From Alphaproteobacteria bacterium (lineage in GTDB: Bacteria; Pseudomonadota; Alphaproteobacteria; UBA828): 64,000 bases of DNA. Below the pieces are notes generated by a model. That model ran no database searches. It was not told where the DNA came from and was given only the letters and a program-made list of their open reading frames with translations. Position 1 is the first letter of the stretch. Each line of letters opens with the position of its first letter. The stretch spans positions 384,001 through 448,000 of the forward strand of contig CBDCRW010000007.1 of NCBI GenBank assembly GCA_965221125.1, read 5' to 3'. A program made the translations under genes and the position numbers. Shown one piece after another: positions 27,509 to 55,009 of the stretch.

Positions 27509-27708
27509 GCCGCCGCTCCGTCCGAGATCTTTCGCCCAATGCCGGCCTTTCGGGTCATCGGGCTGGACGCCGTCGCGGGAGTGATGCAGGACGAGTGCAT
27601 GACCACGGCATCCACGACTCGACTCGGCTCCGGGCCGGCGGCTGACGCGGGCGGCCTCATAGCATGTCCCGCACGCCGTGACCATTCCGGCGCTCGGGAG
27701 CGGGTCCC

Positions 27709-38922: not shown

Positions 38923-39700
38923 GCTTCAGGGCGAGGGCACGCTGCCGAAGACGCCGTCCTTCCGGCTCGACGGCAAGCGGGCGCTCGTCACCGGGGCCAG
39001 CCGCGGCCTCGGCCGCGCCTGCGCCGCCGCGCTCGCCGAAGCCGGCGCCCGGGTCGTGCTCGCGGCGCGTGGCCACGATGACCTGGAGCGAGCAGCAAGT
39101 GAGATCGAGGCGGCGGGCGGCGTCACGGAGATCCTGCCGCTGGACATCGCCGACGTGGAGCAGGCAGCGGCGGTGCTCGCAGCACTCGGGCCGGTCGACA
39201 TCCTCGTCAACAACGCCGGCGGCAACCGCCCCGCCGCATTGCTCGACGTGACGGTGGAGGATTTCGACGCGGTCATGGGCATCAACGTGCGCGGCGCCTA
39301 CTTCTGCGCTCAGGCGGTCGCGCGGGAAATGGTCGCCGCGGAGCGGCACGGCGTCATCATCAACATGTCGTCCCAGATGGGCCACGTGGGCGGGCCAAGG
39401 CGCACGGTCTACTGCGCCACCAAGCACGCGATCGAAGGCATGACCAAGGCGATGGCGATGGACCTCGCCCCGTACAACATCCGGGTCAACGCCATCGGCC
39501 CGACCTTCATTTCCACACCGATGACCGTGCCGTTTCTCGAAGATCCCGCGTTCAAGGAGGACACGCTGAGCCGGATCGCGCTCGGGCGCCTCGGCGAGCT
39601 TCCCGACGTGATGGGCGCCGTCGTGTTTCTGGCAAGCGATGCCGCCAGCCTGATAACCGGCGCGAGCCTGTTGATCGACGGCGGTTGGACTGCGCAATAG
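38900..39700 (+). CDS. SDR family oxidoreductase
   Basis: [22 protein letters not shown]; exact start uncertain. Confidence 0.88.
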
Positions 39701-39935
39701 CTGTACACAATCCGAGCAATTTGCGGAAGTACGGGGAAAATCTACCCCTGAATATCGGTGGAAAAGCACGACTAAATTTCTTCTATCAAGGCAGTTGAAC
39801 GACTTTTGTGTATACCCCCAAGATAGATTGGTATGCCTATACCGAATATCGCCACATATGCTGCTTTCAATCAATGGCATGTCTGCTATATGGCGGAAAG
39901 TTCGAGAATCGCTGGCATTCGACGGAGGTGAATTC

Positions 39936-40226
39936 ATGGCGAGACGGTCTGCGACCAGCTTCGACGAGAGCACATTGACCAAGGGTCAACGCCGCAAACT
40001 GGACACACTGCGAAATTCCGTGGGTGACGAGATCGGTGAGCGTGCGTTCGCTGCCTGGTATGCCAAGCAACCGAAGCCTGTCGAGCCTGAAGTGGACCAC
40101 GACGCCGCGTTGATCGTCGATACGCTCTGGCCGCTCGTCCGGGACGGTACGCTGGCAATTCCGCGGGGCGGGTATCTGCTTCGTCGCGGCCGTCACCGAC
40201 TCATTTGCGAGCCCGCAAGAAAATAG
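39936..40226 (+). CDS. Small basic hypothetical protein (96 aa)
   Basis: GGAGGTG RBS before ATG; preceded by an AT-rich promoter-like region. Confidence 0.6.
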   Translation: MARRSATSFDESTLTKGQRRKLDTLRNSVGDEIGERAFAAWYAKQPKPVEPEVDHDAALIVDTLWPLVRDGTLAIPRGGYLLRRGRHRLICEPARK

Positions 40227-40436
40227 AAATGCGGAGCTTCAGCCACCCGGCATTCGGGAGGCGTTGAACGACCGGGACGAGAATGGGCCGAGCTTGTCTC
40301 GGCCTTGTTCTTGACGAAGTTTCGGCGGGTACGAACGCCAGTATGTCCTTGCACATAGCCGAATATCAATCTCTCCAATCCGTGCAAAGAGGCGTGATTA
40401 GAGACGAATAGGTAAGCCGCGGAGGTCCGCCAATAC

Positions 40437-40495
40437 CCCGGACCATGGTGCGGTGCACAGGCGCTCCGGCGCGAGGCATTGTCCGCGCCATGAAC
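40437..40495 (+). promoter_or_regulatory. Conserved motif copy B, upstream of the phage-like operon
   Basis: CCCGGACCATGGTGCGGTGCAC ... GCGCCATGAACG, shared with 113-185. Confidence 0.45.
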
Positions 40496-41142
40496 GCTCT
40501 GAACGCTCCAACGCCCATCCACCACCCCGCCCGAGGCGCGGCGCACCGATGCCGCGCCCGTCGGGTTCCGGCTCACCATTTCCACACGTGCGGACGCGCA
40601 CCCATTCGATTCCACGCGCGTGGGGGCGCGCGATGAGCGCGCTCGACGGGTGGATCGACATCTGCCGTGCCGGCACCTGGCGCGACATGCAAGGCCACGA
40701 CGTGCGCCTCGACGAGGATCGGCTTGATCGCATCGTGGCGACGCACGCCGCCGCCGATCCGGCGCCGGTCGTGATCGGTCATCCCGAGACCGACGCGCCG
40801 GCCTTTGCCTGGATCGACGGGCTGCGCCGCGCCGGCGACCGGCTGCAGGCGAAGCTCCGCGACATCGCGCCGGCCTTCCGCGAGGCGGTGGAGGCGGGAC
40901 GCTACAGCGGCCGCTCGATCGCTCTCCAGGGCGACACGCTGCGCCACGTCGGATTCCTGGGCGGCCGCGCGCCGGCAGTGCCGGGGCTCGCGCCGACCCG
41001 CTTCGCGGCTGCGCCCGAGACGGTGGTCGCTTTCACCGACGACGGCGACGCGGACCGTTCAGACGACTCACCCGCAGACCACCCCGACTCTCTCCGCGCC
41101 CTGGAGCCGGGAGGAGACGAAGACGGCGACAGCCTCGTCTCG

Positions 41143-41170
41143 CTCCCCGCGCCTCAGGGGCGGGGAGAGG
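41143..41170. repeat. REP-like hairpin embedded in the protease linker
   Basis: CTCCCCGCGCC-TCA-GGGGCGGGGAG-AGG, similar to the element at 17-60. Confidence 0.4.
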
Positions 41171-41218
41171 CCGAAGAGGACGACGGTGATGAGGACGGCA
41201 ACGAACGTGTCGCCCTAG

Positions 41219-42831
41219 CCCGAATTATTCATGGCAGGTCTGGTTTTGGGGTGGCGGACGTAGCGTAAGTCGTTGCCATCGGGTAGGAATTCGTTGCCGA
41301 GGCGTCTTCCTCTCCGAACAACGAAAATGCCACGCCCGCCATGACCGACGATAGTCTTCTTCCCTTCGATCTGCCAAGCGTCCAACGCAAGAAGGTGAGC
41401 GCCGCCTTCGACGGCGGCCTGATCTCGTCTGACGGCGGCCTCGTCCTGCTTCGTGAGGCGGAACGCAGCTTGCGCCTGGCCGAGACCCTGGCCGGCTGCA
41501 TCCGCGACCGGCGCAAGCAGGCGCAGGTGATCCACTCGCTCTCGGCCATGCTGCGCTTCCGCATGTTCGCCATTGCGTGTGGCTACGAAGATGCCGACGA
41601 CTGCGACGCGCTGCGCGCGGACCCTCTGTTCAAGCTGGCCTCAGGCAAGGCGCCGGAGAGCGGCCGCGCACTCTGCTCCCAGCCGACCATGAGCCGCCTG
41701 GAGAACGCGCCGTCTCGTATCGAGGTGGCGCGCATGACGGCGGCGCTGGTCGATCTCTTCTGCCGCAGCTTCCAAGCCCCTCCCGCCGCCATAACCCTTG
41801 ACATCGACGACACCTGCGATGCGGTGCACGGCCACCAGCAGCTCTCGCTCTTCAACGCTCATTACGACACGCGCTGCTTCCTGCCCGTCCACGTCTACCA
41901 TGTGGAAAGCGGCAAGCCGGTGGCGGTCCTCCTGCGCCCGGGCAAGACGCCGTCGGGCCCTGAGGTCCGCACCCTCATCAAGCATCTGGTCCGCCGCATC
42001 CGCCGCCACTGGCCGCACACCCGGATCGTCTTCCGCGGAGACAGCCACTACGGCCGCCCGGAAGCCATGGCCTGGTGCGAGGAGAACGGGGTCGACTACA
42101 TCTTCGGCCTCGCGGGCAACCGCGCGCTGCACGCGCTCGCATACGAGATGGCCGACGATCTCAAGGTGCGCCGCGCCAAGGCCGGCGCAGACAGGATGCG
42201 CAGCTTCACCGCCTTCGACTACGCCGCCCGCTCCTGGAGCTGCGAACGCCGGGTCGTCGCCCGGCTCGAGGCGAGCACCCGCGGCTTCGATGCCCGCTAT
42301 GTCGTCACCTCACTCAAGGGCGAGCCCCGCCATCTCTACGAAGACATCTACTGCGCCCGCGGCCAGGCCGAGAACCTGATCAAGATGCACAAGGGCCAGC
42401 TCGCCTCGGACCGCACCTCCTGCCAGAGCCCGCTCGCCAATCAGCTCAGGCTGGTCCTCCACACCGCAGCCTACTGGCTCATGCTCGCGCTGCGCGACGC
42501 CATTCCCCGCGCCGCGCCGCTCGCCCGTGCAGAGTTTGCAACCCTCAGGCTGCGCCTCCTCAAGATCGGTGCCCGCGTCATCGAGAAGGCCACCCGCATC
42601 CGCATCCACTTCGCCTCGGCCTGCCCCGACGCCGCCCTCTTCCGCCTGCTCGCAGGCCGCCTCGCCGCAGCAGGCCCATGAGCGACGGGGCGGCGTGCCC
42701 CAATCACCCAGGCTCCATAAACCATCAACCCGATAACGACCATCCTCAGTTCCCGACGCCAAACCGCGTCAGGCCCCGACGCGCCCAATCAACCGAGCAT
42801 CAAGTGCAAGGCAGTCCATGAATAGGTCGGG
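41219..42831 (+). mobile_element. IS1380 family insertion sequence (1613 bp)
   Basis: Terminal IRs CCCGAATTATTCATGG / CCCGACCTATTCATGG (14/16); CTAG duplicated at 41215-41218 and 42832-42835. Confidence 0.93.
41341..42681 (+). CDS. IS1380 family DDE transposase
   Basis: FDGG.ISSDGG, GYED.DD, SQPTMSRLEN, LDIDDT, RGDS, Y..RG.AEN.IK. Confidence 0.95.
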   Translation: MTDDSLLPFDLPSVQRKKVSAAFDGGLISSDGGLVLLREAERSLRLAETLAGCIRDRRKQAQVIHSLSAMLRFRMFAIACGYEDADDCDALRADPLFKLASGKAPESGRALCSQPTMSRLENAPSRIEVARMTAALVDLFCRSFQAPPAAITLDIDDTCDAVHGHQQLSLFNAHYDTRCFLPVHVYHVESGKPVAVLLRPGKTPSGPEVRTLIKHLVRRIRRHWPHTRIVFRGDSHYGRPEAMAWCEENGVDYIFGLAGNRALHALAYEMADDLKVRRAKAGADRMRSFTAFDYAARSWSCERRVVARLEASTRGFDARYVVTSLKGEPRHLYEDIYCARGQAENLIKMHKGQLASDRTSCQSPLANQLRLVLHTAAYWLMLALRDAIPRAAPLARAEFATLRLRLLKIGARVIEKATRIRIHFASACPDAALFRLLAGRLAAAGP

Positions 42832-43358
42832 CTAGCCGAGCGGGAAGCCTCGCTCGCGGTGCGGGAGGAAGCGCTGCTGGCGCGGGAGGCAGCCGCCGCG
42901 GCAGACGACCGCCGCCGGGCGGCGGAGGCCGCGATTGCGCCGCATGTGGAAGCGGGGCGCATCCTGCCTGCGGAGCGGCCCGCGCTCGTCGCCCTGTTCA
43001 CCGCACTCGACGGCGAGGGGAGACGGGATGACGAGGGCGCCGACGATGGCTGCGTCACGGTCTCGTTCGCGTCCGCATCGGGCGACGAGGTGCAGATGCG
43101 GCCCGCCGCCATTCTCGAACGGTTCATCGAGGGCCTGCCCAGGCGTGTCGACTACCGCACGCTCGCGGGCGGCCCGGTGCCAGGCGCATCGGCCCTCACG
43201 GGCTCTCACGAAGGTACGGGCGAGGACAGCGAACGGATCGCTGCCGAGGCCCGCACGCTGATGGCGGCGGAGGCGGAGAGGGGCGTCACCCTCACGCCCG
43301 CCGAAGCCGTCGACCGGGCGCGCGCGAGGCGCGGACTCGGCATCCAAGGAGGAACGCA

Positions 43359-43715
43359 ATGAGTCATGTGTTGATGTGGCGAGCGGCGGACGCCGGCGGT
43401 GCCGTCGCCTCGCACCGGATCGTCAAGTACGGCGATGCGGACGGCAAGGTGGTGCAGTCCGCCGCTGCCGAGGACGCCCACGTCGGGGTCTCCGGTCGGG
43501 CGTCGGCCGCCTCAGGCGGGCGCGTCGAGATCGCCCGCGCCGGCATCGCCGACGTCCAGTACGGCGGCAACGTCGCGCGGGGCGCGCTGCTCACCGCCGA
43601 TGCCGACGGCAAGGCGGTGGCCGCCGCCGACGGCAATCGCGTCATTGGCATCGCCGAGGTTTCCGGCGCCGCCGGGGACATCGGCCAGGTGCTGCTGGCG
43701 CCCGGCCTCCACTGA
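43359..43715 (+). CDS. Capsid decoration/cement protein (DUF2190-like)
   Basis: Gly/Ala-rich 118 aa, G.LT.DADGKAV, IGIA..SG.AGD; lies between scaffold and capsid genes. Confidence 0.7.
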   Translation: MSHVLMWRAADAGGAVASHRIVKYGDADGKVVQSAAAEDAHVGVSGRASAASGGRVEIARAGIADVQYGGNVARGALLTADADGKAVAAADGNRVIGIAEVSGAAGDIGQVLLAPGLH

Positions 43716-43725
43716 GGGAATCACC

Positions 43726-44700
43726 ATGGATCACGAAACCGCTCAGCTCGCTTCCGGCCCCTACGAGGTCCAGACCCGGCTCACGCAGATCGCGCAGGCG
43801 GCGATGCCCTCCGGCCTGATCGCCGACGAGGTCTGCCCGCGCGTCCGCACCGGGTTCAAGTTCACCTACACGACGCTCACCGAAGAGGACCTGCTCACCA
43901 TCCCGGACGTCCGCGCCTCCCGCGCGGGCCACCTCAACCAGGTCGAGTTCGGCGCCACGGATACCACGGCAAGCGTCGTGGATTACGGCCTCGAAGACCC
44001 CGTCCCCTCACGCGACATCGAAGAGGCGCGCGCCCAGGAGGTCGCCTACGACCCCCTGGAGCAGGCGGCGATCTCGACCGCCGAGTTGGTGAAGCTCGCG
44101 CGCGAGCGGCGTGTCGCCGACCTGGTGACGACTGCGGCCAACTACGCGGCCGGCCATTCCACGACGCTCAACGGCAACGCGCGGTGGAGCCACGCCAGCT
44201 CGAATCCCCGCAAGGCGATCCTGGAGGCCCTCGACGTGCCGCTGGTGCGCCCCAACACGCTGGTGTTCGGCCAGAAGGTGTGGACCGCCCTGCGCCAGCA
44301 CCCGAAGATCGTGGAGGCTGTGGTCGCCACCGGCGCCGGCGACGAAGCCTCCGGCATCGTCATGAAGGAGGCGGTCGCCGAGCTCTTCGAGGTCGACCGC
44401 GTGCTGGTGGGCAAGGCCTGGTACCAGAGCGCCAAGCGCGGCCAGGCCGACTCCTTCGCGCGCCTCTGGGGCAAGCACGCGTGCGCCATCCACGTGCGCC
44501 ACGACATGGTGTCCGCCCGCGACCGCATGCCCAAGTTCTGCTGGACCGCCGATGCGCTGGGCGGGCTGCAGGTCGGCACCTATGAGGAGCCGGCGCGCGG
44601 CGTCAATCGGGGCTCCACGGTCGTCAAGGTCAGCGAATGCGTCAAGGAGCTGGTGGCCTATGGCCGTGCCGGCTACCTCTGGCGCGACGCGGTGGCCTGA
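43726..44700 (+). CDS. Major capsid protein (Mu-like phage type)
   Basis: LT.IA, LIADEV.PRV, RE.RVA.LV, W....S.P, RPNTLV.G..VW..LR.HPKI, WGKH, AGY...DAVA C-terminus. Confidence 0.8.
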   Translation: MDHETAQLASGPYEVQTRLTQIAQAAMPSGLIADEVCPRVRTGFKFTYTTLTEEDLLTIPDVRASRAGHLNQVEFGATDTTASVVDYGLEDPVPSRDIEEARAQEVAYDPLEQAAISTAELVKLARERRVADLVTTAANYAAGHSTTLNGNARWSHASSNPRKAILEALDVPLVRPNTLVFGQKVWTALRQHPKIVEAVVATGAGDEASGIVMKEAVAELFEVDRVLVGKAWYQSAKRGQADSFARLWGKHACAIHVRHDMVSARDRMPKFCWTADALGGLQVGTYEEPARGVNRGSTVVKVSECVKELVAYGRAGYLWRDAVA

Positions 44701-44703
44701 GCC

Positions 44704-45684
44704 ATGGCCGCATCCCCTCCTGATCCACTCTGCGGCCTCGGCTATTCGCCGGCAGACCCGCGCCAGTCGCCCGCCGAGGGCGCGGTCTGCCGGCACGCCG
44801 AGCGCCTGCTCAACATGGTCCACGCCTATTGCGAGATCCGGGACTCGTGGACCGGGTGGCTGCGCTCCGGTGCCATGAGCCGGACGCTGTTCGAGCGGAT
44901 CATCCCGGAGATGCGCGACCTCCAGGCCGCCGAGCGGCGCATCGTGGAGCGGCCGTCGGTAACGCTGCTGGCGGTGCTCGACTACGCCGCACGCGCGCGG
45001 CAGGCGGTGCGGGCGTACACGCCGCGCGAGGGCATCGACCATCCGCAGCCGGCGCTGCCGGACGGGGTGCGCGATGCCTGCGAGCGGATGGCGAGGGAGG
45101 CAGACCAGGCCGACCGTGCCGCCCGCCGCGCGGCCGCGCGCGAATACGCGGCGCGCATGGCCGACGCCATCGAGCGCGAGCGTGAGGAGGAAGCTCGCCG
45201 CCGGAAAGCGATGGTCGGGGCCGGCGTGACCGAGACGCCGGACGAGGCCAGGCGGGCGAGCGCCGCCGTGGAGGCTCGCATCGCGCTCTATGAGAGTGAA
45301 ATCCGGCGTGTCTACGCGAAAGCCGGTCTCGGCCCGGACGGCAAGGCCGAAGCCGCCGAAGCGCCGGCCGAGCCGCCGCCCGCTGCGACCGGAGTCGCCG
45401 TCCACTGGCACGTCCGCACGCGCCGGTGGGGCAGGACGATCCTGACACCCACGGCGGAAACCGCGCCCCGCTTCGCGGAGCGGCTGCTGCTGGTCGACCG
45501 GGGCAAGCGCGGCGGTGTGCTGCGCGCGTTCGGCGAGCCAGCGCTCGACGGTCTGCGCCAGACGATCAACGGCGTCGCCTTCCGCCTGAGCCACCGGCCG
45601 ACTGTCGCCGCGCGCCTTCGGCGCGACGCAGCTCGCTACGACGCGCGGCTCACGCCCGCGCAGGTCCGGGAGATGCGCACATGA
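44704..45684 (+). CDS. Hypothetical protein with central coiled coil
   Basis: 326-aa ORF tightly packed between capsid and gp36-like genes (ATGA overlap downstream). Confidence 0.6.
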   Translation: MAASPPDPLCGLGYSPADPRQSPAEGAVCRHAERLLNMVHAYCEIRDSWTGWLRSGAMSRTLFERIIPEMRDLQAAERRIVERPSVTLLAVLDYAARARQAVRAYTPREGIDHPQPALPDGVRDACERMAREADQADRAARRAAAREYAARMADAIEREREEEARRRKAMVGAGVTETPDEARRASAAVEARIALYESEIRRVYAKAGLGPDGKAEAAEAPAEPPPAATGVAVHWHVRTRRWGRTILTPTAETAPRFAERLLLVDRGKRGGVLRAFGEPALDGLRQTINGVAFRLSHRPTVAARLRRDAARYDARLTPAQVREMRT

Positions 45685-46082
45685 CCTACGCGACCCGCGC
45701 GGATCTCGATGCGCGCTTCGGCGCGGAAGAGGCGCTGGACCTCGCCGGGATGCAGGCCGGGCGGATCGAGTCCGCGCTCTCCGACGCGGCGGCCGAGATC
45801 GATGCGGCGCTCGCCGCTGCCTATCGCCTGCCGCTCGCGGGCGGCCCCTGGCCGCGGCTTATTGGCATCGCCTGCGACCTGGCCCGGCGTGCGCTCTACG
45901 ACGACGTCTCGTCAGCCGAAGTCGATGCGCGGGCCGAGCGGGCGCGTGCGGCGCTCGCCCGCCTCGCCGCCGGTGAGGAAGCGCTCCTCGACGACTCGGG
46001 CCGCCCGGCACCCCGACGCGACAGCGCCACGCGCGGCGGCTCGGCGCCCGCGCTCACGCCCGACAGCCTGGCGGGGTTGTGA
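45681..46082 (+). CDS. Head-tail connector, Mu gp36/DUF1320 family
   Basis: MTYAT..DL..RFG.EE, AL.DA.AEID..L...Y.LPL, ACDLAR..LY. Confidence 0.85.
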   Translation: MTYATRADLDARFGAEEALDLAGMQAGRIESALSDAAAEIDAALAAAYRLPLAGGPWPRLIGIACDLARRALYDDVSSAEVDARAERARAALARLAAGEEALLDDSGRPAPRRDSATRGGSAPALTPDSLAGL

Positions 46083-46531
46083 TGGCAGGGCAGGGGAGCA
46101 GCGTCGTGGTGGAGATCGCCCCGCGCGACGGATCGCTCGCACGACTGGCAGAGGTGCTTTCGCACCCCGGCGACATCATGGACCGGATCGGCCACTACCT
46201 GGTCGCGTCAACGCACCGGCGCTTCGAGCGCGAGCGCGCACCGGACGGCACGCCCTGGCTCAAGAGCGCCCGCGCCATTGCCGAGGGCGGTCAGACTCTC
46301 ACGAATACAGGCCGCCTGCGCGGCTCGATCGTGCACACGCTCACCGACGGCGGACGAGGCGTCGAAGTAGGGACGAACGTCGTCTACGCCGCCATTCACC
46401 AGTTCAGCGGCCGTGCCGGGAGAGGGCGGAGGACGAAGATTCCCGCGCGCCCCTACCTCGGCGTCGACGAGCACGACCGCGACACGATCCTTCGCATCGT
46501 CGCCCAGGCCATCGAAAGGGCAGGGGCATGA
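46082..46531 (+). CDS. Phage virion morphogenesis (tail completion) protein
   Basis: RF..E.APDG.PW, L..TGRLR.SI, VGTNVVYAAIHQF, IPARPYLG. Confidence 0.88.
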   Translation: MAGQGSSVVVEIAPRDGSLARLAEVLSHPGDIMDRIGHYLVASTHRRFERERAPDGTPWLKSARAIAEGGQTLTNTGRLRGSIVHTLTDGGRGVEVGTNVVYAAIHQFSGRAGRGRRTKIPARPYLGVDEHDRDTILRIVAQAIERAGA

Positions 46532-47004
46532 CTCTCGCGGCGCTGGAAATGCACCTCGCCGACGCAGTGGCGGAACGGCTCGCGGCGCTCAAGGCCGACG
46601 ACGACGCGCCGGTCTTTGCGGCCGTTCTCAGCGCGCTCGATACGGCGGCGCTCACGGCCTGGCCCAAGACGCCGGCCGCCCTGGTGCTGCCGATCTCAGA
46701 CGAAGCGGAGGGCAGCACGACGCGGCGCGTCGAGAACGCGCCGGTGCAGCACGTCGTGCGCGTCGGCGTCTCGATGATGGTCGCGGCGCCCAACGACCGC
46801 GGCGGCGTGCGCGGGCGCGAGCGACTCTCCGCCCTGCTCGCCCGCGCCCGGCAGGCGCTTGCGGGCTGGGCGCCGCCCGGCCAGCGCGAGGTCCTGTCCT
46901 TCCGCCGCGGGCGGCTGATCTCGCTGGAGGACGGGCGCCTTCAGTGGCTTGACGAGTACGAAATCCGCCGCGTCGCCCGTGCCGGCGTCGTGGAAGCTGA
47001 ATAG
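46528..47004 (+). CDS. Putative tail terminator (Mu gp37-like)
   Basis: Position before the tube gene; TPAA.V.P, AL.GW.P, L.W.DEY. Confidence 0.65.
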   Translation: MTLAALEMHLADAVAERLAALKADDDAPVFAAVLSALDTAALTAWPKTPAALVLPISDEAEGSTTRRVENAPVQHVVRVGVSMMVAAPNDRGGVRGRERLSALLARARQALAGWAPPGQREVLSFRRGRLISLEDGRLQWLDEYEIRRVARAGVVEAE

Positions 47005-47016
47005 GGAGACACGCGA

Positions 47017-47907
47017 ATGACCGCGCGAAGCATCGACAAGCGCACCGACAACATCCTCATCGGCGCCGGCGAGGTCTATCTCGACATCCACGAGGGAGGC
47101 GCTGCCACGGGCGAGCGCTACCTCGGCGATGCCGTGGGCGCCGAGCTGGAGGTGGCGGCCGAGGAAACCACGGTCTTCTCGGGCTCGGGCCCCGTCGCGC
47201 GCGAGCTCACGCGCATCGCCCGCAGCGTGACGCGGACGGCGCGGCTCACGCTCCACGACATCAGCCTGGAGAACCTGGCGCTCTTCACGGTAGGCGACGT
47301 GAAGCGGCTCGGCGCCGCCGGCGCTGTCTCGGGCGAGGCGGCCATCCTGCGGCCCGGCCGCTGGTACCAGCTGGGAGGGGCCGACCGGCCCGCCGGCGTG
47401 CTCAGGCTCGCGACGCCAGCCAGCAAGGCCGCGGCCATCGCCGCCGTGACCGTCGCCTCCACAGCGCAGACGCCGGTGACGGCGACGCAAGCGATCGAGG
47501 CCAACCGCTTCGCCACGGGCAACGCCGAGGCCGAGCAGAAGGGCCAGTACATCGTGGACTATGCCCGCGCCCGGATATTCTGGTTGCCCGCCGACCACGC
47601 GCTCTACGAGGCCAAGGCCGGTGTCGAGGCGGATACCGCTCTCGCCATCGACTACACGCCCGACGATGCGGCGCGGGACCAGGTGCAGGGCGCGTTCCGG
47701 CAATTGATCGGCGCCTTCCGCTATATCGAGGACGCCGCCGAGGGCCAGGGGCGGAACATCTATGCGCCGCGCTGTTCGATCCAGCCGGCCGGCGGGCTGA
47801 CCCTGCTCGACGGGCGCTCGTCCGAGCAGCAGATCCGCCTCGCCGTCTCGATGCTGGAGCCAGGCGGCGGCCGGCCTGCGCTCTATATCGACGGGCAGGC
47901 CGCATGA
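47017..47907 (+). CDS. Putative major tail tube protein (non-contractile)
   Basis: N..IG.GEVY, GERYLGD, LTLHDISLENLALF; position; no sheath gene nearby. Confidence 0.7.
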   Translation: MTARSIDKRTDNILIGAGEVYLDIHEGGAATGERYLGDAVGAELEVAAEETTVFSGSGPVARELTRIARSVTRTARLTLHDISLENLALFTVGDVKRLGAAGAVSGEAAILRPGRWYQLGGADRPAGVLRLATPASKAAAIAAVTVASTAQTPVTATQAIEANRFATGNAEAEQKGQYIVDYARARIFWLPADHALYEAKAGVEADTALAIDYTPDDAARDQVQGAFRQLIGAFRYIEDAAEGQGRNIYAPRCSIQPAGGLTLLDGRSSEQQIRLAVSMLEPGGGRPALYIDGQAA

Positions 47908-48403
47908 AGGCCGTGCACGAGCTGGCGGTGCTGTTCCCGGACCGCGACGTAGCGGTGCGGGATCCCGACACCGGCGCCGAGGTCTCGCTCACGGTGCGGG
48001 AGTTCCGCTTCCGCGAAGGGCTGCGACGGCGCTGGGGCGGCCCTTGATCGCGGCCCTGGCGGCGCTGGTGCCGGAGACGGGCAGCAGCGCGAACGACCAG
48101 GAGGATGAACCGGACGCGCTTACGATCGAGAGCGCGCTCGCCGCCCATGCGGCGCTCTGGCTGGAACTCACCGCCCGCGCCTGCGGCCGGGATGCGGACT
48201 GGCTCGCGCGCCTCGGCGATGCGGACGGCCGCGCGCTCTCGGAGGCGATGTGGGCGGCGAACGGAGGATTTTTTTTGCGCCGCGTCGTGGCCCAGGTGGC
48301 GAGCCGGGCGCGGGGAGCGAACCCGTTGCGCTCTCCCGCGTGCTCGACACCCTCGTCCGCGCCGGCCACGGGCGCGGCCACCTCGACCTCGGCGAGCGCC
48401 TGA
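47904..48403 (+). pseudogene. Tail assembly chaperone, frameshifted near 48022
   Basis: MKAVHELAVLFPDR..VREFRFREGL stops at 48047; the C-terminal part (..PLIAALA..W..N..FF.RR) continues in another frame. Confidence 0.65.
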
Positions 48404-48447
48404 CGTGGCGGCAGATCGTCCTCTTCTACCGAACGGCGACGGAATGA
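48269..48447 (+). CDS. -1 frameshift extension of the tail chaperone (gpGT-like)
   Basis: T8 run with T TTT TTG heptamer; the -1 frame is open and ends LTWRQIVLFYRTATE. Confidence 0.55.
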
Positions 48448-48486
48448 CCGGCTGGCGGTCGAAGGAGATGGTGCATCGGGAGCGCC

Positions 48487-48574
48487 GGGCCGTAGGCCCG
48501 GACGGCGCGGACGCGCCGCGCGCCGCACGGCGCGAGAGCCAAGCGAGCGGAGCGAGCGCCCGGCGACTGAGGGA
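48487..48574 (+). repeat. Dispersed structured repeat, copy 2
   Basis: GGGCCGTAGGCCCGGACGGCGCG...AGCCAAGCGAGCGGAGCGAGCGCCCGGCGACTGAGGGA, 8 nt before the TMP ATG. Confidence 0.85.
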
Positions 48575-48582
48575 ACCAAAAT

Positions 48583-49362
48583 ATGCCAAGTGATCTCGAT
48601 CTCGCGGTGCGCGTTCGTGCCGACATGCGCGAGGCGCTGCAGGGAATCGGCGCGCTCAACCGCTCCCTCGGGGATACCGCGCGGCGGAGCGGCGAGGCGG
48701 ACGCGGCGCTTGCGGGCGCAACCGGCGCGGCGCGGGAACTCTCGGCGACGTTCGGGCGGGCGCCGGGTCCCGAGGCGGACGCAGCCTGGATCGACGCGAT
48801 GCAGACATCGCTGAGCGCTCTCGGCCGCGAGAGCGAGCGCACGCTTGATGGAACCCGATCTGCGGCGGAGACCGCCTTCGACGCCATGGAGGGGGCGCTC
48901 ACCCGGTTCGTGACCACGGGCAGGCTCGATTTTTCCGGCTTCGTCGATTCCGTGATCGCCGATCTCGCCCGCCTGGCGACACGCCGCTTCTTCGCCCAGC
49001 CCCTGAGCGACCTGCTGTTCGGCGTGCTCGGCGGCGGCGCGGCGGCTGCCTCTGCCCCGATCTTCCACGCCGGCGGCACGATCGGCGCGCTGGGCGGCGT
49101 CAGGCGGGACGCCGGGCTCCGCGCCGATGAGGTGCCGGTGATCGCGCAACGCGGCGAGACGATCCTGCCGCGCGGCGCGCGGATCGCTCCGCCTTCCGTG
49201 CACGTCAACTTCGAGAACCGCGGCACGCCGCAGCGCGAGGTGAGCCGCGAGGTGCGCTTCGATGCCCGCGGCGTCGTTGTCTCAATCGTTACCGACGATC
49301 TCCGGCGGGGCGGCCCCATTCGTCAGACCATGCAGCGCGAACTCGGCGGAGGCACGCGATGA
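48583..49362 (+). CDS. Short tail tape measure protein (lambda-type C-terminal domain)
   Basis: L.VRVRAD N-terminus; F.AMEGALT.FVTTG.LDF..F..SVIADLAR; FHAGG; DEVP.I.QRGE. Confidence 0.8.
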   Translation: MPSDLDLAVRVRADMREALQGIGALNRSLGDTARRSGEADAALAGATGAARELSATFGRAPGPEADAAWIDAMQTSLSALGRESERTLDGTRSAAETAFDAMEGALTRFVTTGRLDFSGFVDSVIADLARLATRRFFAQPLSDLLFGVLGGGAAAASAPIFHAGGTIGALGGVRRDAGLRADEVPVIAQRGETILPRGARIAPPSVHVNFENRGTPQREVSREVRFDARGVVVSIVTDDLRRGGPIRQTMQRELGGGTR

Positions 49363-49372
49363 TCCGGGTGAA

Positions 49373-49465
49373 GGGCCGGGGCGCGAAGCGGCCCGGAGCG
49401 CGCGACCGCGCGCCGCGCGAAGCGCGTAGGCAAGCGAGCGGAGCGAGCGCCCGCCGATTGAGGGA
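49373..49465 (+). repeat. Dispersed structured repeat, copy 3
   Basis: GGCCCGGAGCGCGCG...GGCAAGCGAGCGGAGCGAGCGCCCGCCGATTGAGGGA, 9 nt before GTG start. Confidence 0.8.
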
Positions 49466-49474
49466 AACGAACAA

Positions 49475-49843
49475 GTGACGGGCCTCGTCTGGCCCGACTA
49501 CGCGGCGGTCGAGGCGGACGGCTACGCCGTCAGCGACGACACCAACGTGGAACGCACGCCCTTCGACGACGGCTTGATCCGCCAGGTGCGGCGCCATGCA
49601 AGCGCGCTGACGGCGCTCTCGATCACCGCCTTGCTCGCGAACGACGCCGACTATCGGCGCTTTCGCGCCTGGGCGGCGGAGAACGCGCATCGCTGGTTCG
49701 CATGGGCGGCACCGGAGTCCGGCACCGTGCATCAGGTGCGCGTGCGCGGCGGCGCCGGCGGAATCGAATACACGGCGCGCATCGGCCCGGACGGCCGGCG
49801 CTCGTGGGAGGCGATCCTCGATCTCGAGGGCGTCGGACTTTGA
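49475..49843 (+). CDS. Putative distal tail protein
   Basis: WP.Y, GY, V.RT.FDDG..RQ.R, F.AW, WF.W; directly follows the TMP. Confidence 0.65.
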   Translation: MTGLVWPDYAAVEADGYAVSDDTNVERTPFDDGLIRQVRRHASALTALSITALLANDADYRRFRAWAAENAHRWFAWAAPESGTVHQVRVRGGAGGIEYTARIGPDGRRSWEAILDLEGVGL

Positions 49844-49855
49844 GCCTTTTGTATT

Positions 49856-49940
49856 TCCCTCAATCGCCGGGCGCTCGCTCCGCTCGCTTGGCTACGCGCT
49901 GCGCGCGCGGCGCGGTCGCGCCGTCCGGGCCTGCCGGCCC
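49856..49940 (-). repeat. Dispersed structured repeat, copy 4 (inverted)
   Basis: TCCCTCAATCGCCGGGCGCTCGCTCCGCTCGCTTGGCT...CGCGCCGTCCGGGCC is the reverse complement of the consensus. Confidence 0.85.
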
Positions 49941-49947
49941 GGCCCTC

Positions 49948-52900
49948 ATGCAGCAAAGCGGTAGGGCGACTCAAATCTCTACCGATATCTGGCCGCATCC
50001 GCTCACTGCGCACGGCCGCCAGGCCCGCGCGCTCGCGGTGCTGCCGGAGACCGCCCTCGCGGATGTGATCGCGGAGGCGCTGCCCGGCGCCGGCGATTCC
50101 GATCTGATCGCGTCCGCGCTACCGCTGCGCTGCTTGAGCGCGGACGCGCCCTTCACCGCCGCCATCGATGGCCGGCCCGTGCCGCCGGCCGTCTGGGCAA
50201 CAACGCAACTCCGCGCCGGCCAGATCGTCACCTTGCGCGCGGCGCTGGCCGACGGCAGCGGGGGCAAGAATCCCCTCGCCGCAATCCTCCAGATCGCCAC
50301 CCTCGTCGCCGCCATTGTGGTGCCGCCCCTGCTCTTCGCCTCATCCTGGGCGCAAGCGATCACCGGCGCCGCCATCACCATCGCCGGCGGGCTGATCGTG
50401 AATGCGCTCGCCCCGCCCCGCGCGCCGGATGCCCTGCCCGAGCCGGGCGCCGCGCCCGCGCCCGTCTACAGCCTCCGCGCCGGCTCCAATCGCGCGCGCC
50501 CCTACGAGCCCCTGCTGCTCGTCATGGGCGCGCATCGCGTGTTCCCCGATCTCAGCGCCGCCGAGTACACCGAGATCGTCGACGGCGAGCAGTACCTCCA
50601 TCAGATTTTCAACTTCGGCCTCGGCAATCTCGCCATCGACGATTTCCGCATCGGCGAGACGGCGCTGCGCTCCTACGAGGAGGTGAGCCTCCAGCGCGAC
50701 GATGCGGCCGGCGCGCTTACCCTCGTCGCCGGCAACGTGGACAGCGAGGCCGGCGGCGTGCTGGCCGATCCCGCCTTTATCGAAAGGGCCACCGGCCCGA
50801 ACACGGGGCGCATCGGCATCGATCTCGCCGGGCGCATCTTCGAGGTGAACGAGCAGGGCGATATCGTCGCGAACAGCGTGGAGATCGAGGTCCAGTGGGA
50901 GCCGGCCGCCGGCGGCGGCCCGGTGGAAAGCCGCACGGTCACGCTCACCAACGATAGCCAAGCGCCCTATCGCCGCACGCTGGGCTACGATCTCGGCACG
51001 CCCGGCGCCTGGATCGTGCGCGTGCGCCGCGCCGCCCCGCCGGCCGATTCGGATCGCGTCTATGACGATCTCTCCTGGGCCGCGCTCCGCGCCTATCAGC
51101 TCGATACGGCCGATTACCAGGGGCAGACGCGCTACGCCCTGCGCATCCGCGCATCCGGCCAGCTTTCCGGCCGCCTCAATCGCGTCTCCGCGATGGTGCG
51201 CCAGCGCGTGCCTACATGGGACGGCACTCAATGGACGGCCTCGATGCCGACGGACAACCCGGCATGGCTGTTCCGCTGGTATGCGCGGGGCATCCGCGTG
51301 GACGGCCGCCTCGTGGCCGGCCTCGGCCTCTCCAGCCGGCGCATCGATGAGGAGGCGCTGAAAGCATGGGGCGCCTGGTGCGCCGCGCAAGGGCTCGGCT
51401 GCAACCTTGTGCTGGACCGCGCCATCACGCATGGCGATGTGCTGGCGCTCATCGCCCAATGCGGGCGCGCGAGCGTGAGCTGGCAGAGCGGCAGGCTCGG
51501 CGTGGTCTGGGAGGAAGCCGGGCGCCCGGCAACGGCCCTGATAACGCCCGGCAACATCGTCGCCGGCTCCTTCGCCGTGGAATACGCCAATGGCCGCGGG
51601 GCGGACGAGATCGCGGTGCGCTACATCGATCCCGCGCTCGATTGGCAATACAACACGCTCCGCCGCCTGGCGCCCGGCGTCACGACTCCGCCCGCGAGCA
51701 CGGCCACGATCACGCTGCACGGCGTCACCTCAAGCATGCAGGCGGCGGCGGAATGCAATCTGCAGGCCGCGCGCCAGCTCTACCATCGCCGCCGCTTCTC
51801 ATGGGAGATGGCGGCGGAGGGGCTTTCGCTCGCGCGGGGCGACGTGGTCCATCTCACCCATTCCCTGATCGATGGCGGGCGCGCCGGGCGCCTCGCCGGC
51901 GGCGATGCCGCGCGCCCGGTGCTCGATAGGCCGGTGAACGTCGACGGCGGTGGCGAGATGCTGTTCCGCCTGGCGGACGGCCGCGTGCATCGGAGCGCCG
52001 TCTCCGCCCCGCCGGGCGTGGCCGGGGAGACCGCCGCAATCGCGCTCGCCACGCCCTTGCCGCAGGCCCCGGATGCGGATGGCGCCAGCCCGCGCGATTC
52101 GCTCTGGCGCCTCTACGATGCCGCCCTGCCGCCGGTGCGCGCCCGCATCGTCGCGGTAGAGCCCGCAACGGACCGGCGGGTGCGCTTTACCGCCATCGAC
52201 GAGCTCGCGCTCTACTACGATGCCGCCACGCTCGATCTCTCCGCACCGCTGCCGCCGCTGCGCTCGCGCGCGCCCCGCATCCTCGATGTCACGCTGGCCG
52301 AAACGCTGGTGCGCGTGGGCGCCGGCTTCGCCGTGGAGATCGAGGCCGCGCTGACCGTGGCCGGCGATTGGCGGGGCGGCGTGATCCGCGCCGGCATCGA
52401 TGGCGAGACGCCGCGCACCGTGGCGCGCATGATCGATGGCGAGACCACCGCGCGATGGCTGGCGCCGCCCGCCGGCACGCTCACCGTGACCGTCACGCCC
52501 GGCACGGAGGCCGCGCCCTCCGGCGCGCCGTTCACTACCATCTACGAGATCGTCGGCCCCCTGGCGCCGCCGCTGCCGCCCTCCAATTTCCTGATCGATG
52601 TGCTGGGCGACGGCACGCGGCGCCTGCGCTGGACCCCGCCGCTGGACGTCGATCTCGCCGGCGTGCTGATCCGCTTCGGCGCCCAGGCCCGCCCGCCGCT
52701 GGATTGGGAGCAGCTCATGCCGCTGCATCGGGGCCATCTCACCGCCTCGCCGCTGGAGACAATCGAGCCGCCCGCCGGCGTCTGGGTCTTTTCGGCCCGC
52801 GCCATCGATACCGGCGGGCGCCTCTCCGAAGAGGAGGTGCGGATCGTGGCCGAGCTCGGGCCGCAGCGCCAGGGCGATGCCATCGTTTGGGTCTGCCCCT

Positions 52901-53565
52901 CCGCTACCGGCTGGCCCGGCACGCTGTTCGATACCATCGAACGCTCCGATGATGGCCGCGATGCGCTGGAGAACATCGGCGATTACACCTGGGACGATCT
53001 CACCACCTGGGACGCCTGGGAGTCGTGGACAACCGGGAACGGCATGCAGGCGACCACGGAGATCCTGTTTCGGAGCACGGTCGAAGATTTGGGCGCCGTG
53101 TTCGATGCCGAGTTGCGCTGGACGGCGGATGTGGTGGGCGAGGCCGAATTCGAATACCGCGCCGCGGAGGCGCGGGAGGATATCGCGGGCGCGGCCTGGA
53201 CGCCCTATGTGCCGGCGACAACGGTGCATGGGCGCTTCCTGCAAATGCGCTGGCGCGTCACCGGCGACGGCACGCGGGTTATCGGCCTCGATCACCTCTG
53301 CTGGTCAATCCACGCCCCCGGCGCCATCCGCAAGCTGCTTGATCGCAACACGGCCGATTGGCCGGGCACGGCGGCGGATGGGCGCGAGGTGCCGAACGAT
53401 CTCCGCCTCGTCACCGATCTCGACGTCACCCTGCAATCCGTAAGCGCCGGCTGGAGCTGGACGCTGCTCAGAAAGAACGATCCCACGCTGATCAGGATTT
53501 ACGATGGCGACGGCAATCCGGCCGATGCCATCGTGGACGTGATCGTGCGCGGCGTCGCCGCATAG
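49948..53565 (+). CDS. Tail tip/host specificity protein (TipJ-like, with N-terminal gpI-like region)
   Basis: Hydrophobic hairpin after GGKNPL, N.ARPYEP...V.G.HR..PD, RIRASGQLSG, NPAW, FN3-like P..P.NF..RLRW; start uncertain. Confidence 0.8.
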   Translation: MQQSGRATQISTDIWPHPLTAHGRQARALAVLPETALADVIAEALPGAGDSDLIASALPLRCLSADAPFTAAIDGRPVPPAVWATTQLRAGQIVTLRAALADGSGGKNPLAAILQIATLVAAIVVPPLLFASSWAQAITGAAITIAGGLIVNALAPPRAPDALPEPGAAPAPVYSLRAGSNRARPYEPLLLVMGAHRVFPDLSAAEYTEIVDGEQYLHQIFNFGLGNLAIDDFRIGETALRSYEEVSLQRDDAAGALTLVAGNVDSEAGGVLADPAFIERATGPNTGRIGIDLAGRIFEVNEQGDIVANSVEIEVQWEPAAGGGPVESRTVTLTNDSQAPYRRTLGYDLGTPGAWIVRVRRAAPPADSDRVYDDLSWAALRAYQLDTADYQGQTRYALRIRASGQLSGRLNRVSAMVRQRVPTWDGTQWTASMPTDNPAWLFRWYARGIRVDGRLVAGLGLSSRRIDEEALKAWGAWCAAQGLGCNLVLDRAITHGDVLALIAQCGRASVSWQSGRLGVVWEEAGRPATALITPGNIVAGSFAVEYANGRGADEIAVRYIDPALDWQYNTLRRLAPGVTTPPASTATITLHGVTSSMQAAAECNLQAARQLYHRRRFSWEMAAEGLSLARGDVVHLTHSLIDGGRAGRLAGGDAARPVLDRPVNVDGGGEMLFRLADGRVHRSAVSAPPGVAGETAAIALATPLPQAPDADGASPRDSLWRLYDAALPPVRARIVAVEPATDRRVRFTAIDELALYYDAATLDLSAPLPPLRSRAPRILDVTLAETLVRVGAGFAVEIEAALTVAGDWRGGVIRAGIDGETPRTVARMIDGETTARWLAPPAGTLTVTVTPGTEAAPSGAPFTTIYEIVGPLAPPLPPSNFLIDVLGDGTRRLRWTPPLDVDLAGVLIRFGAQARPPLDWEQLMPLHRGHLTASPLETIEPPAGVWVFSARAIDTGGRLSEEEVRIVAELGPQRQGDAIVWVCPSATGWPGTLFDTIERSDDGRDALENIGDYTWDDLTTWDAWESWTTGNGMQATTEILFRSTVEDLGAVFDAELRWTADVVGEAEFEYRAAEAREDIAGAAWTPYVPATTVHGRFLQMRWRVTGDGTRVIGLDHLCWSIHAPGAIRKLLDRNTADWPGTAADGREVPNDLRLVTDLDVTLQSVSAGWSWTLLRKNDPTLIRIYDGDGNPADAIVDVIVRGVAA

Positions 53566-53576
53566 GAGAGGAACAC

Positions 53577-54287
53577 ATGCCCTGGCCGCGAGACGATCTT
53601 GTGACGGACGATCTGGACTCCGGCGCGGATCGCCCGCCGCGCGCGGAATTCTTCAAGCTGTTCGAGCGCGTGAAGGCGATCATCGGCTCGCGCGGCGAGA
53701 TCAACGGCGTTCCGATCCTGGACAGCCGGGGCCGCATTCCGGCGGCGCAGATAGGGCGCGGCGTGGCCGGCGGCGTGGCCTCGCTCGGCCCCGCCGGCAC
53801 CGTGCCGCTGGCCCAGCTCCCGACTCTGTCTGCGCCGGAAAGCGAGGTGCCGCCCGGCGCGATTGCGATGTGGGCCGGCGGCAACGCGGCGCCGCAGGGC
53901 TGGCACAATTGCTATGGCGCCGCCGTGAGCCGCGCCACCTACGCCGCGCTGTTCGCCGCGATTGGCACCACTTACGGCGCGGGCGATGGCGTGAGCACGT
54001 TCAATCTGCCGCATCTGGGCGCGCGCTTCCCGCTGGGCCGCGGCTCCGGCCGCGCCCTCGGCGCCACCGGCGGGGCGGTCACGCATACGCTCACCGAGGC
54101 GGAGATGCCGCGCCACTTTCACACCATCGCGGAATCGGAGGAGGACGATAACCCGGACCCCGGCAACCGGGTGATCACGAACACGCGGGCGCAGCTAGGC
54201 ACGATCAACACGGGCCACGCCGGCGGCAACGCGGCGCACAACAACATGCCGCCCTATCTCGTCGTGAACTTCATCATCAAATGGTGA
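53577..54287 (+). CDS. Tail fibre protein with tail collar domain
   Basis: P.GAI.MWAG..AP.GW..C.G..VSR.TYAALFAAIGTTYG.GDG.STFNLP, HNNMPPYL.VNFIIK. Confidence 0.88.
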   Translation: MPWPRDDLVTDDLDSGADRPPRAEFFKLFERVKAIIGSRGEINGVPILDSRGRIPAAQIGRGVAGGVASLGPAGTVPLAQLPTLSAPESEVPPGAIAMWAGGNAAPQGWHNCYGAAVSRATYAALFAAIGTTYGAGDGVSTFNLPHLGARFPLGRGSGRALGATGGAVTHTLTEAEMPRHFHTIAESEEDDNPDPGNRVITNTRAQLGTINTGHAGGNAAHNNMPPYLVVNFIIKW

Positions 54288-54329
54288 GACGGGCCGCAAG
54301 CGCGCGGGCGGCGGCGGGGGCGGTGCGAG

Positions 54330-54986
54330 TCAATCCGATGCGCGCTTTTGCGCCCAGCCCCAATTGCCGTCGTCGATCCTGCAATTGCCGAAGCCGGGGT
54401 GCTGCTCCACCAGGAGCGAGAACACCTTTCCGACCTGCGCCGTCGTGGCTTCTTCATCGCTGAGCCGGGCGGCGCGCTGGCGAACGGTCGGGGTGGGGCT
54501 GTTGGCCATCGTCCAGCGCAGATCGTCGAACAGCAGCCAGCCTCCCGGTCTCAGCAGTTTCTCGACCAGGAAGAAGCCGAATCCGGTCACGTCCCACGTG
54601 TGTCCCGCGTCCAGGTAGCAGAAGTCGAAGCGGGGCCGGCAGCAGCCGTCCACGGTCGCCGCCTCGATGACCTTCATCAGCTCCCAGGTGAACGAGCGCT
54701 TGGCAAAGACCGGCCGGACCCACGCGCCCAGTCCCGTGCGTTCGAGCAGCGTTTCGATGTTGGGCGTGCGGTTGCGGGCGCCTTCCAGGTCCATAGTCAG
54801 GACCGAGCCGGAGCCAAGCTCCCGGACAGCGGCGCCGAGGTAGCAGCTCGACTTTCCGTGCGCGAAGCCGAGCTCCAGGATGTCGCGGCACTCGTTCTCG
54901 ATGACGAAGTCGTAGAGCGAGCGCGCCCGGCGAGAGGAGATGAAGGGCAGTCCGTCGAGCTGACTGTCGATCCGGTCGAAACCCAT
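54330..54986 (-). CDS. Class I SAM-dependent methyltransferase (Methyltransf_24-like)
   Basis: ILELGFAHGKSS, FDFCYLDAGH, LRPGGWLLFDD. Confidence 0.85.
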   Translation of the reverse strand: MGFDRIDSQLDGLPFISSRRARSLYDFVIENECRDILELGFAHGKSSCYLGAAVRELGSGSVLTMDLEGARNRTPNIETLLERTGLGAWVRPVFAKRSFTWELMKVIEAATVDGCCRPRFDFCYLDAGHTWDVTGFGFFLVEKLLRPGGWLLFDDLRWTMANSPTPTVRQRAARLSDEEATTAQVGKVFSLLVEQHPGFGNCRIDDGNWGWAQKRASD

Positions 54987-55009
54987 TCCCGGTTCGCTTC
55001 GGCTCACGT

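Follow-up and report, generated by a model that had tools for sequence, protein, structure and literature searches.

How genes for a phage head and tail are maintained at one place in a bacterial chromosome with neither portal nor terminase beside them is the question raised by a cluster at positions 40633-54287 of the stretch analysed here. This stretch, called the window, comprises 64,000 nucleotides (nt), namely positions 384001-448000 of contig C7 of the source genome G000; C4 to C7 denote contigs, and coordinates without a contig name are those of the window. G000 has a G+C content of about 69%, and public sequencing runs matching small portions of the sequence are sponge metagenomes by label. 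It was compared with 20 other species-level genomes of one uncultured genus of Rhodospirillales (with G000, the genus set), the relatives being metagenome-assembled genomes labelled 'Rhodospirillales bacterium' or 'Alphaproteobacteria bacterium'. The initial annotation of the window had described a Mu-like capsid and small-tail operon, suggested to be long domesticated and damaged in this copy, which could represent either a new lineage of gene transfer agents (GTAs) with packaging genes elsewhere or a DNA-free particle.

Judged from sequence, the cluster is likely to be the head-and-tail locus of a GTA-like particle system that derives from a B3/Mu-type phage and is fixed, dispersed and vertically inherited within this one genus. 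That the system transfers DNA in the manner of a GTA is put at a little under an even chance, and it is presented as a candidate GTA, not as a demonstrated one. Different phages have given rise to GTAs on several occasions, and recognising a new one is difficult, as searches rest on likeness to those already known (PMC11841831). The system described here was recognised by its evolutionary behaviour: it occupies a fixed site, its parts are dispersed, its genes are under purifying selection and co-diverge with the host, and one operator-like palindrome is common to its units.

A head-and-tail cluster at a fixed chromosomal site

The capsid gene of the cluster (locus A) was present in 16 of the 20 other genus genomes, with identities of 92-97%; the 28 genomes searched from 13 further genera of the order yielded no copy. 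All 17 capsid carriers, G000 included, hold an orthologous cluster at the same chromosomal site with at least one shared host flank, either SDR and/or orf97 upstream (12/17) or AhpC and/or AtpA downstream (11/17), as had been anticipated for a domesticated system. In G000 the cluster is bounded, as proposed, by host genes identified in Pfam scans (PriA through HisD and SDR upstream; CMD, AhpC and AtpA downstream). Its head module, of B3/Mu type, is followed by a short tail of siphovirus type, all genes being co-oriented. Gene identities were taken from Pfam and PHROG scans and from orthologues in relatives (G011, G020), which confirmed the gene content and order first suggested; no portal, terminase, gpF, transposase, repressor or lysis gene was detected inside the cluster by these scans of the window. 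The features are as follows, with protein lengths in amino acids (aa).

39936..40226, plus strand: orf97, a small open reading frame (ORF) of 96 aa directly upstream of the cluster, of uncertain role and membership
40438..40500, plus strand: promoter/operator-like block with the palindrome CCGGACCATGGTGCGG, TGCAC and, about 25 nt later, the conserved ATTGTCCGCGCCATG; about 175 nt upstream of the protease start
40633..41218, plus strand: head maturation protease/scaffold, 5' part (codons 1 to about 195), 89% to residues 1-177 of the orthologue in G020 (379 aa, intact)
41219..42831, plus strand: insertion sequence (IS) of 1613 bp, with a transposase at 41341-42681 (DDE_Tnp_1_4, Pfam E 4.5e-166), terminal inverted repeats of about 16 bp and a CTAG target duplication
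42832..43362, plus strand: protease/scaffold, 3' part, 85% to G020 residues 202-379, in frame +1 like the 5' part
43359..43715, plus strand: decoration/cement-like head protein, 118 aa (Phage_cement_2, phrog_673), 81-95% in relatives
43726..44700, plus strand: major capsid protein of B3/Mu type, 324 aa (phrog_1005, E 4e-70)
44704..45684, plus strand: conserved 326-aa protein of unassigned function in the position of B3 ORF39, 62-78% in relatives
45681..46082, plus strand: Mu gp36-type head-tail adaptor, 133 aa, intact (PF07030 E 3e-17; phrog_195)
46082..46531, plus strand: Mu gpG-type virion morphogenesis protein / Neck1 (Phage_tail_S, PF05069 E 3e-30; phrog_26)
46528..47004, plus strand: tail terminator (PF23840 E 3e-17), 88-92% in relatives
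47017..47907, plus strand: major tail (tube) protein, 296 aa (phrog_807), 79-91% in relatives
47904..~48400, plus strand: tail assembly chaperone (DUF6631), frameshifted near 48023; DUF6631 and phrog_1442 in the G011 orthologue
48583..49362, plus strand: miniature tape measure protein (TMP), 259 aa (Tape_meas_lam_C)
49389..49476, no strand: host repeat resembling repetitive extragenic palindromes (REP-like) between the TMP gene and the next gene, matching other copies in the genome
49475..49843, plus strand: small distal-tail protein, 122 aa (Dit in the initial annotation), 73-84% in relatives; the G011 orthologue matches phrog_384 (virion structural protein)
49847..49947, no strand: REP-like repeat marking the point where 2.7 kb are deleted, with about 15 further copies in the genome
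49948..53565, plus strand: J-like central tail fibre / tip protein (FNIII-A_GpJ, Phage-tail_3); G011 orthologue phrog_31, E 2e-110
53577..54287, plus strand: tail fibre with collar domain (PF07484 E 1e-20), 45-57% in relatives, the fastest-evolving of the set

Purifying selection was found throughout. Median dN/dS (pairwise Nei-Gojobori) was lowest for the capsid (0.10), followed by terminator (0.13), decoration protein (0.15), holin-like protein (0.18), portal (0.19), tube (0.22), repressor (0.25), TerL (0.26), 326-aa protein (0.30), protease/scaffold (0.31), TMP (0.38) and J-like protein (0.39), and highest for a DUF1833 tip protein (0.55) and the fibre (0.62); the portal and the genes of locus C (see below) lay between 0.18 and 0.34. 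All values were well below 1, where the initial annotation had expected values near 1 of a simple decayed prophage, and they stayed low in the closest pair, G000-G020 (capsid 0.06, TerL 0.15, tube 0.18), a comparison in which two host rows are paralogues and to be ignored. Median dS of the system genes (0.35-0.72 overall, 0.37-0.72 for the cluster and TerL) equalled that of the neighbouring host genes (0.30-0.76, with host dN/dS of 0.06-0.23). Maximum likelihood trees of eight taxa, from concatenated host genes and concatenated system genes, both contained the groups {G000, G020}, {G004, G014} and {G011, G008, G005, G009}.

The nearest phages are B3-like transposable siphophages of Pseudomonas, whose capsid shares 39% identity over 98% of its length, and an origin as a recent prophage, against which the annotation had wanted the locus checked, finds no counterpart in these distant relatives. 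In IMG/VR the best full-length capsid match reached 44% (39.7-kb contig) and a 93%-identical capsid fragment was located on a 5-kb contig; no close intact phage was present in phage collections or IMG/VR. Together with the conserved site, the low dN/dS and the host-like dS, this distance supports the long-term domestication that had been suggested.

Several genes of the cluster deserve comment. The protease/scaffold assignment rests on the intact G011 orthologue, which matches phrog_976 (head maturation protease) with E 3e-44. For the conserved 326-aa protein no match was obtained in Pfam, PHROG or PDB, and no similarity to B3 ORF39. The gp36-like gene had been named correctly and is intact, though its reading frame differs from that of the long ORF 45709-47004. 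In the chaperone gene a second-frame extension is conserved in relatives, which looks like a programmed frameshift product of the G/GT kind. The TMP, rightly described as miniaturised, corresponds to the C-terminal part only, aligning to about 840-1120 of TMP profiles of about 1100 aa, and it is short in the two relatives read as well (258 aa in G020, 269 aa in G011). The two REP-like repeats (about 90 bp, 49389-49476 and 49847-49947) are inverted copies that bracket the small distal-tail gene.

Whether orf97 belongs to the cluster is uncertain. It stands beside the cluster in 12 of the 17 carrier stretches and is missing next to SDR in G019 and G012, both without the cluster. It matched nothing in Pfam or PHROG, and a homologue (36%) lies within a Mu-like element of G002. 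Its identification as TerS or a gp26 homologue was rejected, as it has neither similarity to B3 ORF29 or ORF30 nor a family match. At least four diverged paralogues (69-76% DNA identity) occur in G000, one of which adjoins an anti-sigma-factor-like gene (C7:55804-56042).

Packaging and lysis-like genes at further loci and a shared palindrome

A search of the whole genome located the packaging genes which had been supposed to lie elsewhere. Locus B (C7:342141-345916), at a distance of 78 kb upstream of the cluster, carries TerL and a Mu-type portal (PF06074); the portal is the single match to the Mu portal family in the whole genome, 82 kb upstream of the cluster and on the opposite strand. TerL (470 aa; the only Terminase_6C match in the genome) adjoins the portal across an RTX-repeat gene and aligns end to end with TerL of phage B3; the positions of its ATPase and nuclease motifs, which we take to be the deviant Walker A, Walker B and nuclease acidic residues, are kept in 10 of 10 genus sequences. 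Given this conserved TerL with intact motifs, and a portal under purifying selection, the DNA-free particle offered as an alternative becomes less likely. The intervening gene (C7:342955-344304) encodes a 449-aa protein with RTX calcium-binding repeats; it stands between TerL and portal in G000, G004, G005 and G014 and does not in G009, G011, G018 and G020.

Three small terminase (TerS) genes of the Mu gp27 type (PF11985, phrog_426) occur in G000, and a third locus, C, lies 60 kb upstream of the cluster:

C5:247597-248205: TerS
C5:669546-670169: TerS
C6:145365-145985: TerS, a 66% copy
C7:360193-363913: locus C, in the order Mu Gam-like protein, 97-aa PHROG-7669 protein, 314-aa CI-like repressor with S24 peptidase domain, unassigned gene, palindromic motif, DUF5675 protein, holin-like membrane protein

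The DUF5675 protein, for which solved structures include no informative relative, may act in lysis, judging from its position. The initial statement that portal, terminase, repressor and lysis genes are lacking therefore holds within the cluster and fails for the genome, where portal, TerL, TerS, repressor and lysis-like genes occupy other loci. As a side observation, one TerS gene is located inside a repeat of about 940 bp (C5:247433-248370).

These loci, too, are conserved. The Mu portal family was detected in 18 of the 20 other genus genomes, TerS in 17 (missing from G012, G016 and G017) and the holin-like gene in 14 at 80-95% identity, in single copy except in G002. The full set of phage-derived head, tail, portal and terminase genes is represented in the genus, three to four species of which lack the system. 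Locus B lies between a MetE-like gene and pyruvate carboxylase in eight of the ten relatives fetched, and the order of locus C is likewise kept in eight of ten. In G003 and G019 locus B is rearranged, and the pair of DUF5675 and holin-like genes directly precedes TerS/TerL, which is the late-operon order of Mu. A single inversion that would join a portal fragment to the protease gene was considered and rejected: the protease gene has a complete start preceded by about 400 nt of non-coding DNA with the conserved promoter block, and the two-locus layout is common to eight relatives.

What unites the loci is a 16-bp palindrome with its block, in which an ATG stands 33 nt past an 18-nt motif. It precedes the protease gene in 10 of 10 genomes and was invariant in all nine relatives aligned, three of which have a different upstream context. 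The same block is found before the portal gene in 10 of 11 genomes (9/10 relatives and G000), before DUF5675 in 11 of 11, with the start codon exactly 33 nt past the motif, and before all three TerS genes of G000; a degenerate copy precedes TerL in 11 of 12 genomes, G000 included, with none for G003. It was by listing all palindrome copies of G000 and reading the genes downstream that the TerS genes, the repressor of locus C and the lysis pair were found. Counted on both strands with at most one mismatch, the motif occurs 11-78 times per genome in the 18 genus genomes with system parts (reversed motif as control: 0-1) and not once in G012, G016 and G017, three genomes of 100% completeness that lack all parts of the system. 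Because the motif is absent from genomes without the system, it should belong to the element and not to a general host regulon, and the protein binding it is probably encoded by the system. The palindrome region matched no Rfam family; the sole match in 39700-54400 was sub-threshold, by chance, and inside the IS. A further copy of the palindrome with one mismatch and an ATG 33 nt downstream is present at 114-131 of the window.

In total, the parts of the system span C7:342141-438287 (96 kb) plus the TerS genes on C5 and C6. Stretches of 14-60 kb containing conserved host genes separate them, and in G003 and G005 they are distributed over different contigs. No MuA-type transposase, integrase or replication gene was found at any locus; gpF (Mu gp30; PF04233) was without a match in G000 and, among the 17 capsid carriers, in 12, and the 20 matches to PF09299 in G000 all belong to one unrelated IS family away from the loci. 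This layout contradicts the view that a temperate phage, still autonomous, or a satellite resembling phage-inducible chromosomal islands moves horizontally and merely prefers these sites. Such a view could draw on a Mu-like element in G002, with MuA-type transposase, gpF and relatives of TerL (67%), portal (69%) and capsid (80%), but genes for transposition, integration or replication are lacking at the loci, dS and tree match those of the host, and phage collections hold no close phage, which leaves an autonomous element highly improbable. The G002 element (C1:187861-212470 of that genome) is a second, more phage-like one, in which transposase, a holin-like gene, TerL, portal and gpF are on one strand and the head genes on the opposite strand, so that it is likewise rearranged; its presence shows, at the level of sequence, that the source phage lineage infects the genus.

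Damage and the points that weigh against the proposed GTA-like system

The G000 copy of the system is recently dead or disabled, as had been suspected, and carries more lesions than were claimed. The IS splits the protease/scaffold gene; 11 copies of it at 100% identity are spread over five contigs, from which a recent insertion and a very recent burst of transposition in G000 follow. The frameshift reported at first is real, with its site in the tail chaperone near 48023 and not in the protease gene: residues 7-42 of the G011 orthologue match 47919-48026 and residues 43-153 match 48023-48364, in two frames. A frameshift in the protease gene, suggested by a plot of G+C at third codon positions (GC3), was rejected because both halves align in frame +1. 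Between 49843 and 49948 about 2.7 kb are deleted (window 49945-50162 corresponds to 26021-28910 of the G020 stretch), whereby three tail-tip genes kept in relatives were removed, namely a Gp80-like (172 aa), a DUF1833 (556 aa) and a DUF6950-like gene (101 aa). Finally, the portal has lost residues 24-183 in frame and has an altered end. Logan contigs from two runs, probably of the source sample, support 46864-48558, where they cover the chaperone frameshift with zero differences, and 49905 onward; none of those listed spans the IS junctions or the deletion junction.

By appearance G011 and G020 are intact in every part examined. The following observations, on the other hand, speak against the GTA-like system proposed here. 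At least seven of the 17 carriers have a disabling lesion in some part: besides the four lesions of G000, the decoration gene is lost and the capsid gene 5'-truncated in G004, neck and tail genes are lost in G006, G013 and G014, a 4.4-kb insertion interrupts the terminator gene of G009 and a 5-kb insertion TerL of G008. With so many carriers lesioned the system is evidently dispensable, and selection on it may now be weak. The motif is missing from the system-free genomes, which points to control probably through the element's own regulator and not a host one. TerS covers positions 2-171 of the 173 of the Mu gp27 profile and is not visibly truncated, whereas TerS of known GTAs is said to lack the DNA-binding domain (PMC11841831). 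About 16 shorter copies of the TerS repeat, resembling miniature inverted-repeat transposable elements (MITE-like; e.g. C4:248500-248784, C6:812213-812502), retain the first codons, the promoter block in front of them and the 3' end and nothing else, so TerS and motif, as a repeat family with such derivatives, look selfish and not host-controlled. Host and system trees differ in the branching order within {G011, G008, G005, G009}, and every genome used is a metagenome assembly.

The lesions could be taken to mean that the loci are inert leftovers of one old Mu-like prophage, scattered by rearrangement in an IS-rich genome and slowly decaying without function. The lesioned carriers fit this, as do the many active IS (in G000 one is present in 11 identical copies and a second in 20) and the absence of the system from three to four species of the genus. 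Neutral decay over a dS of about 0.4-0.6 would, however, give a dN/dS near 1 and many frameshifts, where 0.10-0.38 was observed for most genes and low values in the closest pairs; the palindrome of the promoter block does not vary between species at any unit, and the lesions look recent, as the 100% identity of the IS copies illustrates. Functionless remains are in our view distinctly unlikely.

In the second IS-like element with its 20 identical copies (e.g. C5:251467-252795), an ATPase-like ORF follows the gene of a transposase of about 440-457 aa (HTH_32, rve, Mu-transpos_C). That this element represents the freed transposition module of the phage is unsupported, as it shares only 24% with the B3 transposase over 176 residues.

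Relation to known particle systems and a possible mechanism

The closest likeness is to B3 and other Beetrevirus phages (D3112/JBD-like), with which the head order is shared (protease with nested scaffold, small decoration/scaffold protein, capsid, unassigned gene, gp36 adaptor) as well as the families of gpG/Neck1, Mu-type TerL, portal, gp27 TerS, Gam and repressor. The TMP is about a quarter as long, 259 aa against the roughly 1100 aa of the 3300-nt B3 gene. Unlike in B3, gpG sits behind gp36, the tail tip is lambda J-like, G000 lacks gpF, and instead of a contiguous genome with A/B transposase the genes are found at no fewer than four chromosomal sites (at least four), with vertical inheritance and without A/B transposase at the loci. 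Compared with Mu/B3 transposable prophages in general, the homologous head and packaging genes (gp27, gp28, gp29, I/Z, T, gp36, G) are present, and the hallmarks, a DDE transposase A with ATPase B and a contiguous genome of about 37-40 kb, are missing.

The GTA of Rhodobacter capsulatus (RcGTA) is a vertically inherited head and short-tail cluster with further loci, a very short TMP, a Phage-tail_3 tip domain and no replication or integration genes, and it is controlled through host regulators. The present system resembles it in the vertically inherited, phage-derived head and short-tail cluster, the extra loci, the short TMP, the Phage-tail_3 tip and the absence of replication and integration genes at the loci. 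It differs in that capsid, portal, TerS and neck genes are of the Mu/B3 and not the HK97 type (PF05065, the HK97-family capsid, gave one weak match in G000, on C6), in that TerL and portal lie outside the head-tail cluster, and in that control would apparently run through the element's palindromic operator and S24 repressor. Two independent GTA lineages, VSH-1 (Brachyspira) and BaGTA (Bartonella), are domesticated phage genes conserved throughout their genera, divided between loci in VSH-1, with experimentally proven DNA transfer. The present system, in which DNA transfer is a prediction, shares with them the genus-wide conservation and, with VSH-1, the divided loci; the sequence families are unrelated. 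Neither a Mu-like GTA nor GTAs from Rhodospirillales associated with sponges turned up in a full-text literature search, and in the literature searched the ancestral phage type is not listed among those of known GTAs.

PBSX forms a non-propagating particle with terminase and portal, is under repressor/SOS-type control and is retained across strains, in one contiguous cluster and with a contractile tail. Terminase, portal and retention are alike here, as a non-propagating particle and repressor-type control would be; dispersal and a non-contractile tail are not. It might accordingly be asked whether the genes make a functional domesticated particle which serves something other than gene transfer, be it a PBSX-like killer with incidental host DNA or a capsid with another cellular role. 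The fastest-evolving genes are the fibre (dN/dS 0.62, 45-57% identity) and DUF1833 (0.55), which would fit an arms race over receptors, control by an S24 repressor would resemble that of SOS-induced defective phages, and G006, G013 and G014 keep head genes without tails, as if the head module alone were valuable. Yet purifying selection has conserved TerL, TerS and portal, and the catalytic motifs are intact, by which the filling with DNA appears to matter; the loci showed no gene for immunity or for a toxin. Killing and transfer are inseparable at the level of sequence, and we give a purpose other than transfer a minor probability.

For the GTA-like system favoured here the following course is envisaged. 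Its ancestor would be a transposable siphophage of the B3/Mu kind whose genes became divided among several chromosomal sites. A single DNA-binding protein of the system's own, for which the S24 repressor is the obvious candidate, might switch all loci together, and the system would then be inducible by damage. Heads would be built from portal, protease/scaffold, capsid and decoration proteins and filled with DNA by TerS and TerL; gp36, gpG and terminator would attach a short tail, of about 40 nm as estimated from the 259-aa TMP, and the lysis-like pair (DUF5675, holin-like) may release the particles. Gene identities, dispersal, synteny, purifying selection, co-divergence with the host and the common motif are observed, while co-regulation, particle production and DNA transfer are what we infer. 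Since the genes span at least 96 kb and further contigs, with no transposase or replication gene at the loci, particles could not carry their own genes (the headful size being deduced from the 38-kb genome of B3), and any DNA they hold would be host DNA. The conservation of TerS, TerL and portal in a system unable to transmit itself is the reason for favouring GTA-like packaging. A bolder version holds that this GTA lineage is independent and the first to have come from a transposable siphophage of the Mu/B3 kind, that its own S24 repressor, acting on the one palindromic operator, fires its four or more loci together, and that the roughly 16 MITE-like TerS copies per genome serve as dispersed pac sites, so that headfuls of host DNA would be taken from many chromosomal places; in this full form it is regarded as rather doubtful.

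If particles are made, gene exchange would be added to the biology of widespread sponge-associated bacteria, and a natural example of a Mu-like head freed from transposition would be at hand. The shared palindrome offers an experimental handle, through which it can be tested directly whether the loci are co-regulated, which protein regulates them and which genes make up the complete system.

Two further observations concern the surroundings of the cluster in the window. Beside the fibre gene, at 54330-55000, a minus-strand ORF contains a Methyltransf_24 domain, and relatives match only its other part, residues 72-218 approximately. Between 23000 and 26800 the G+C content drops to 0.63-0.65, compared with about 0.70 around it, with no ORF of high GC3 called, and this stretch may be an island or an RNA region.

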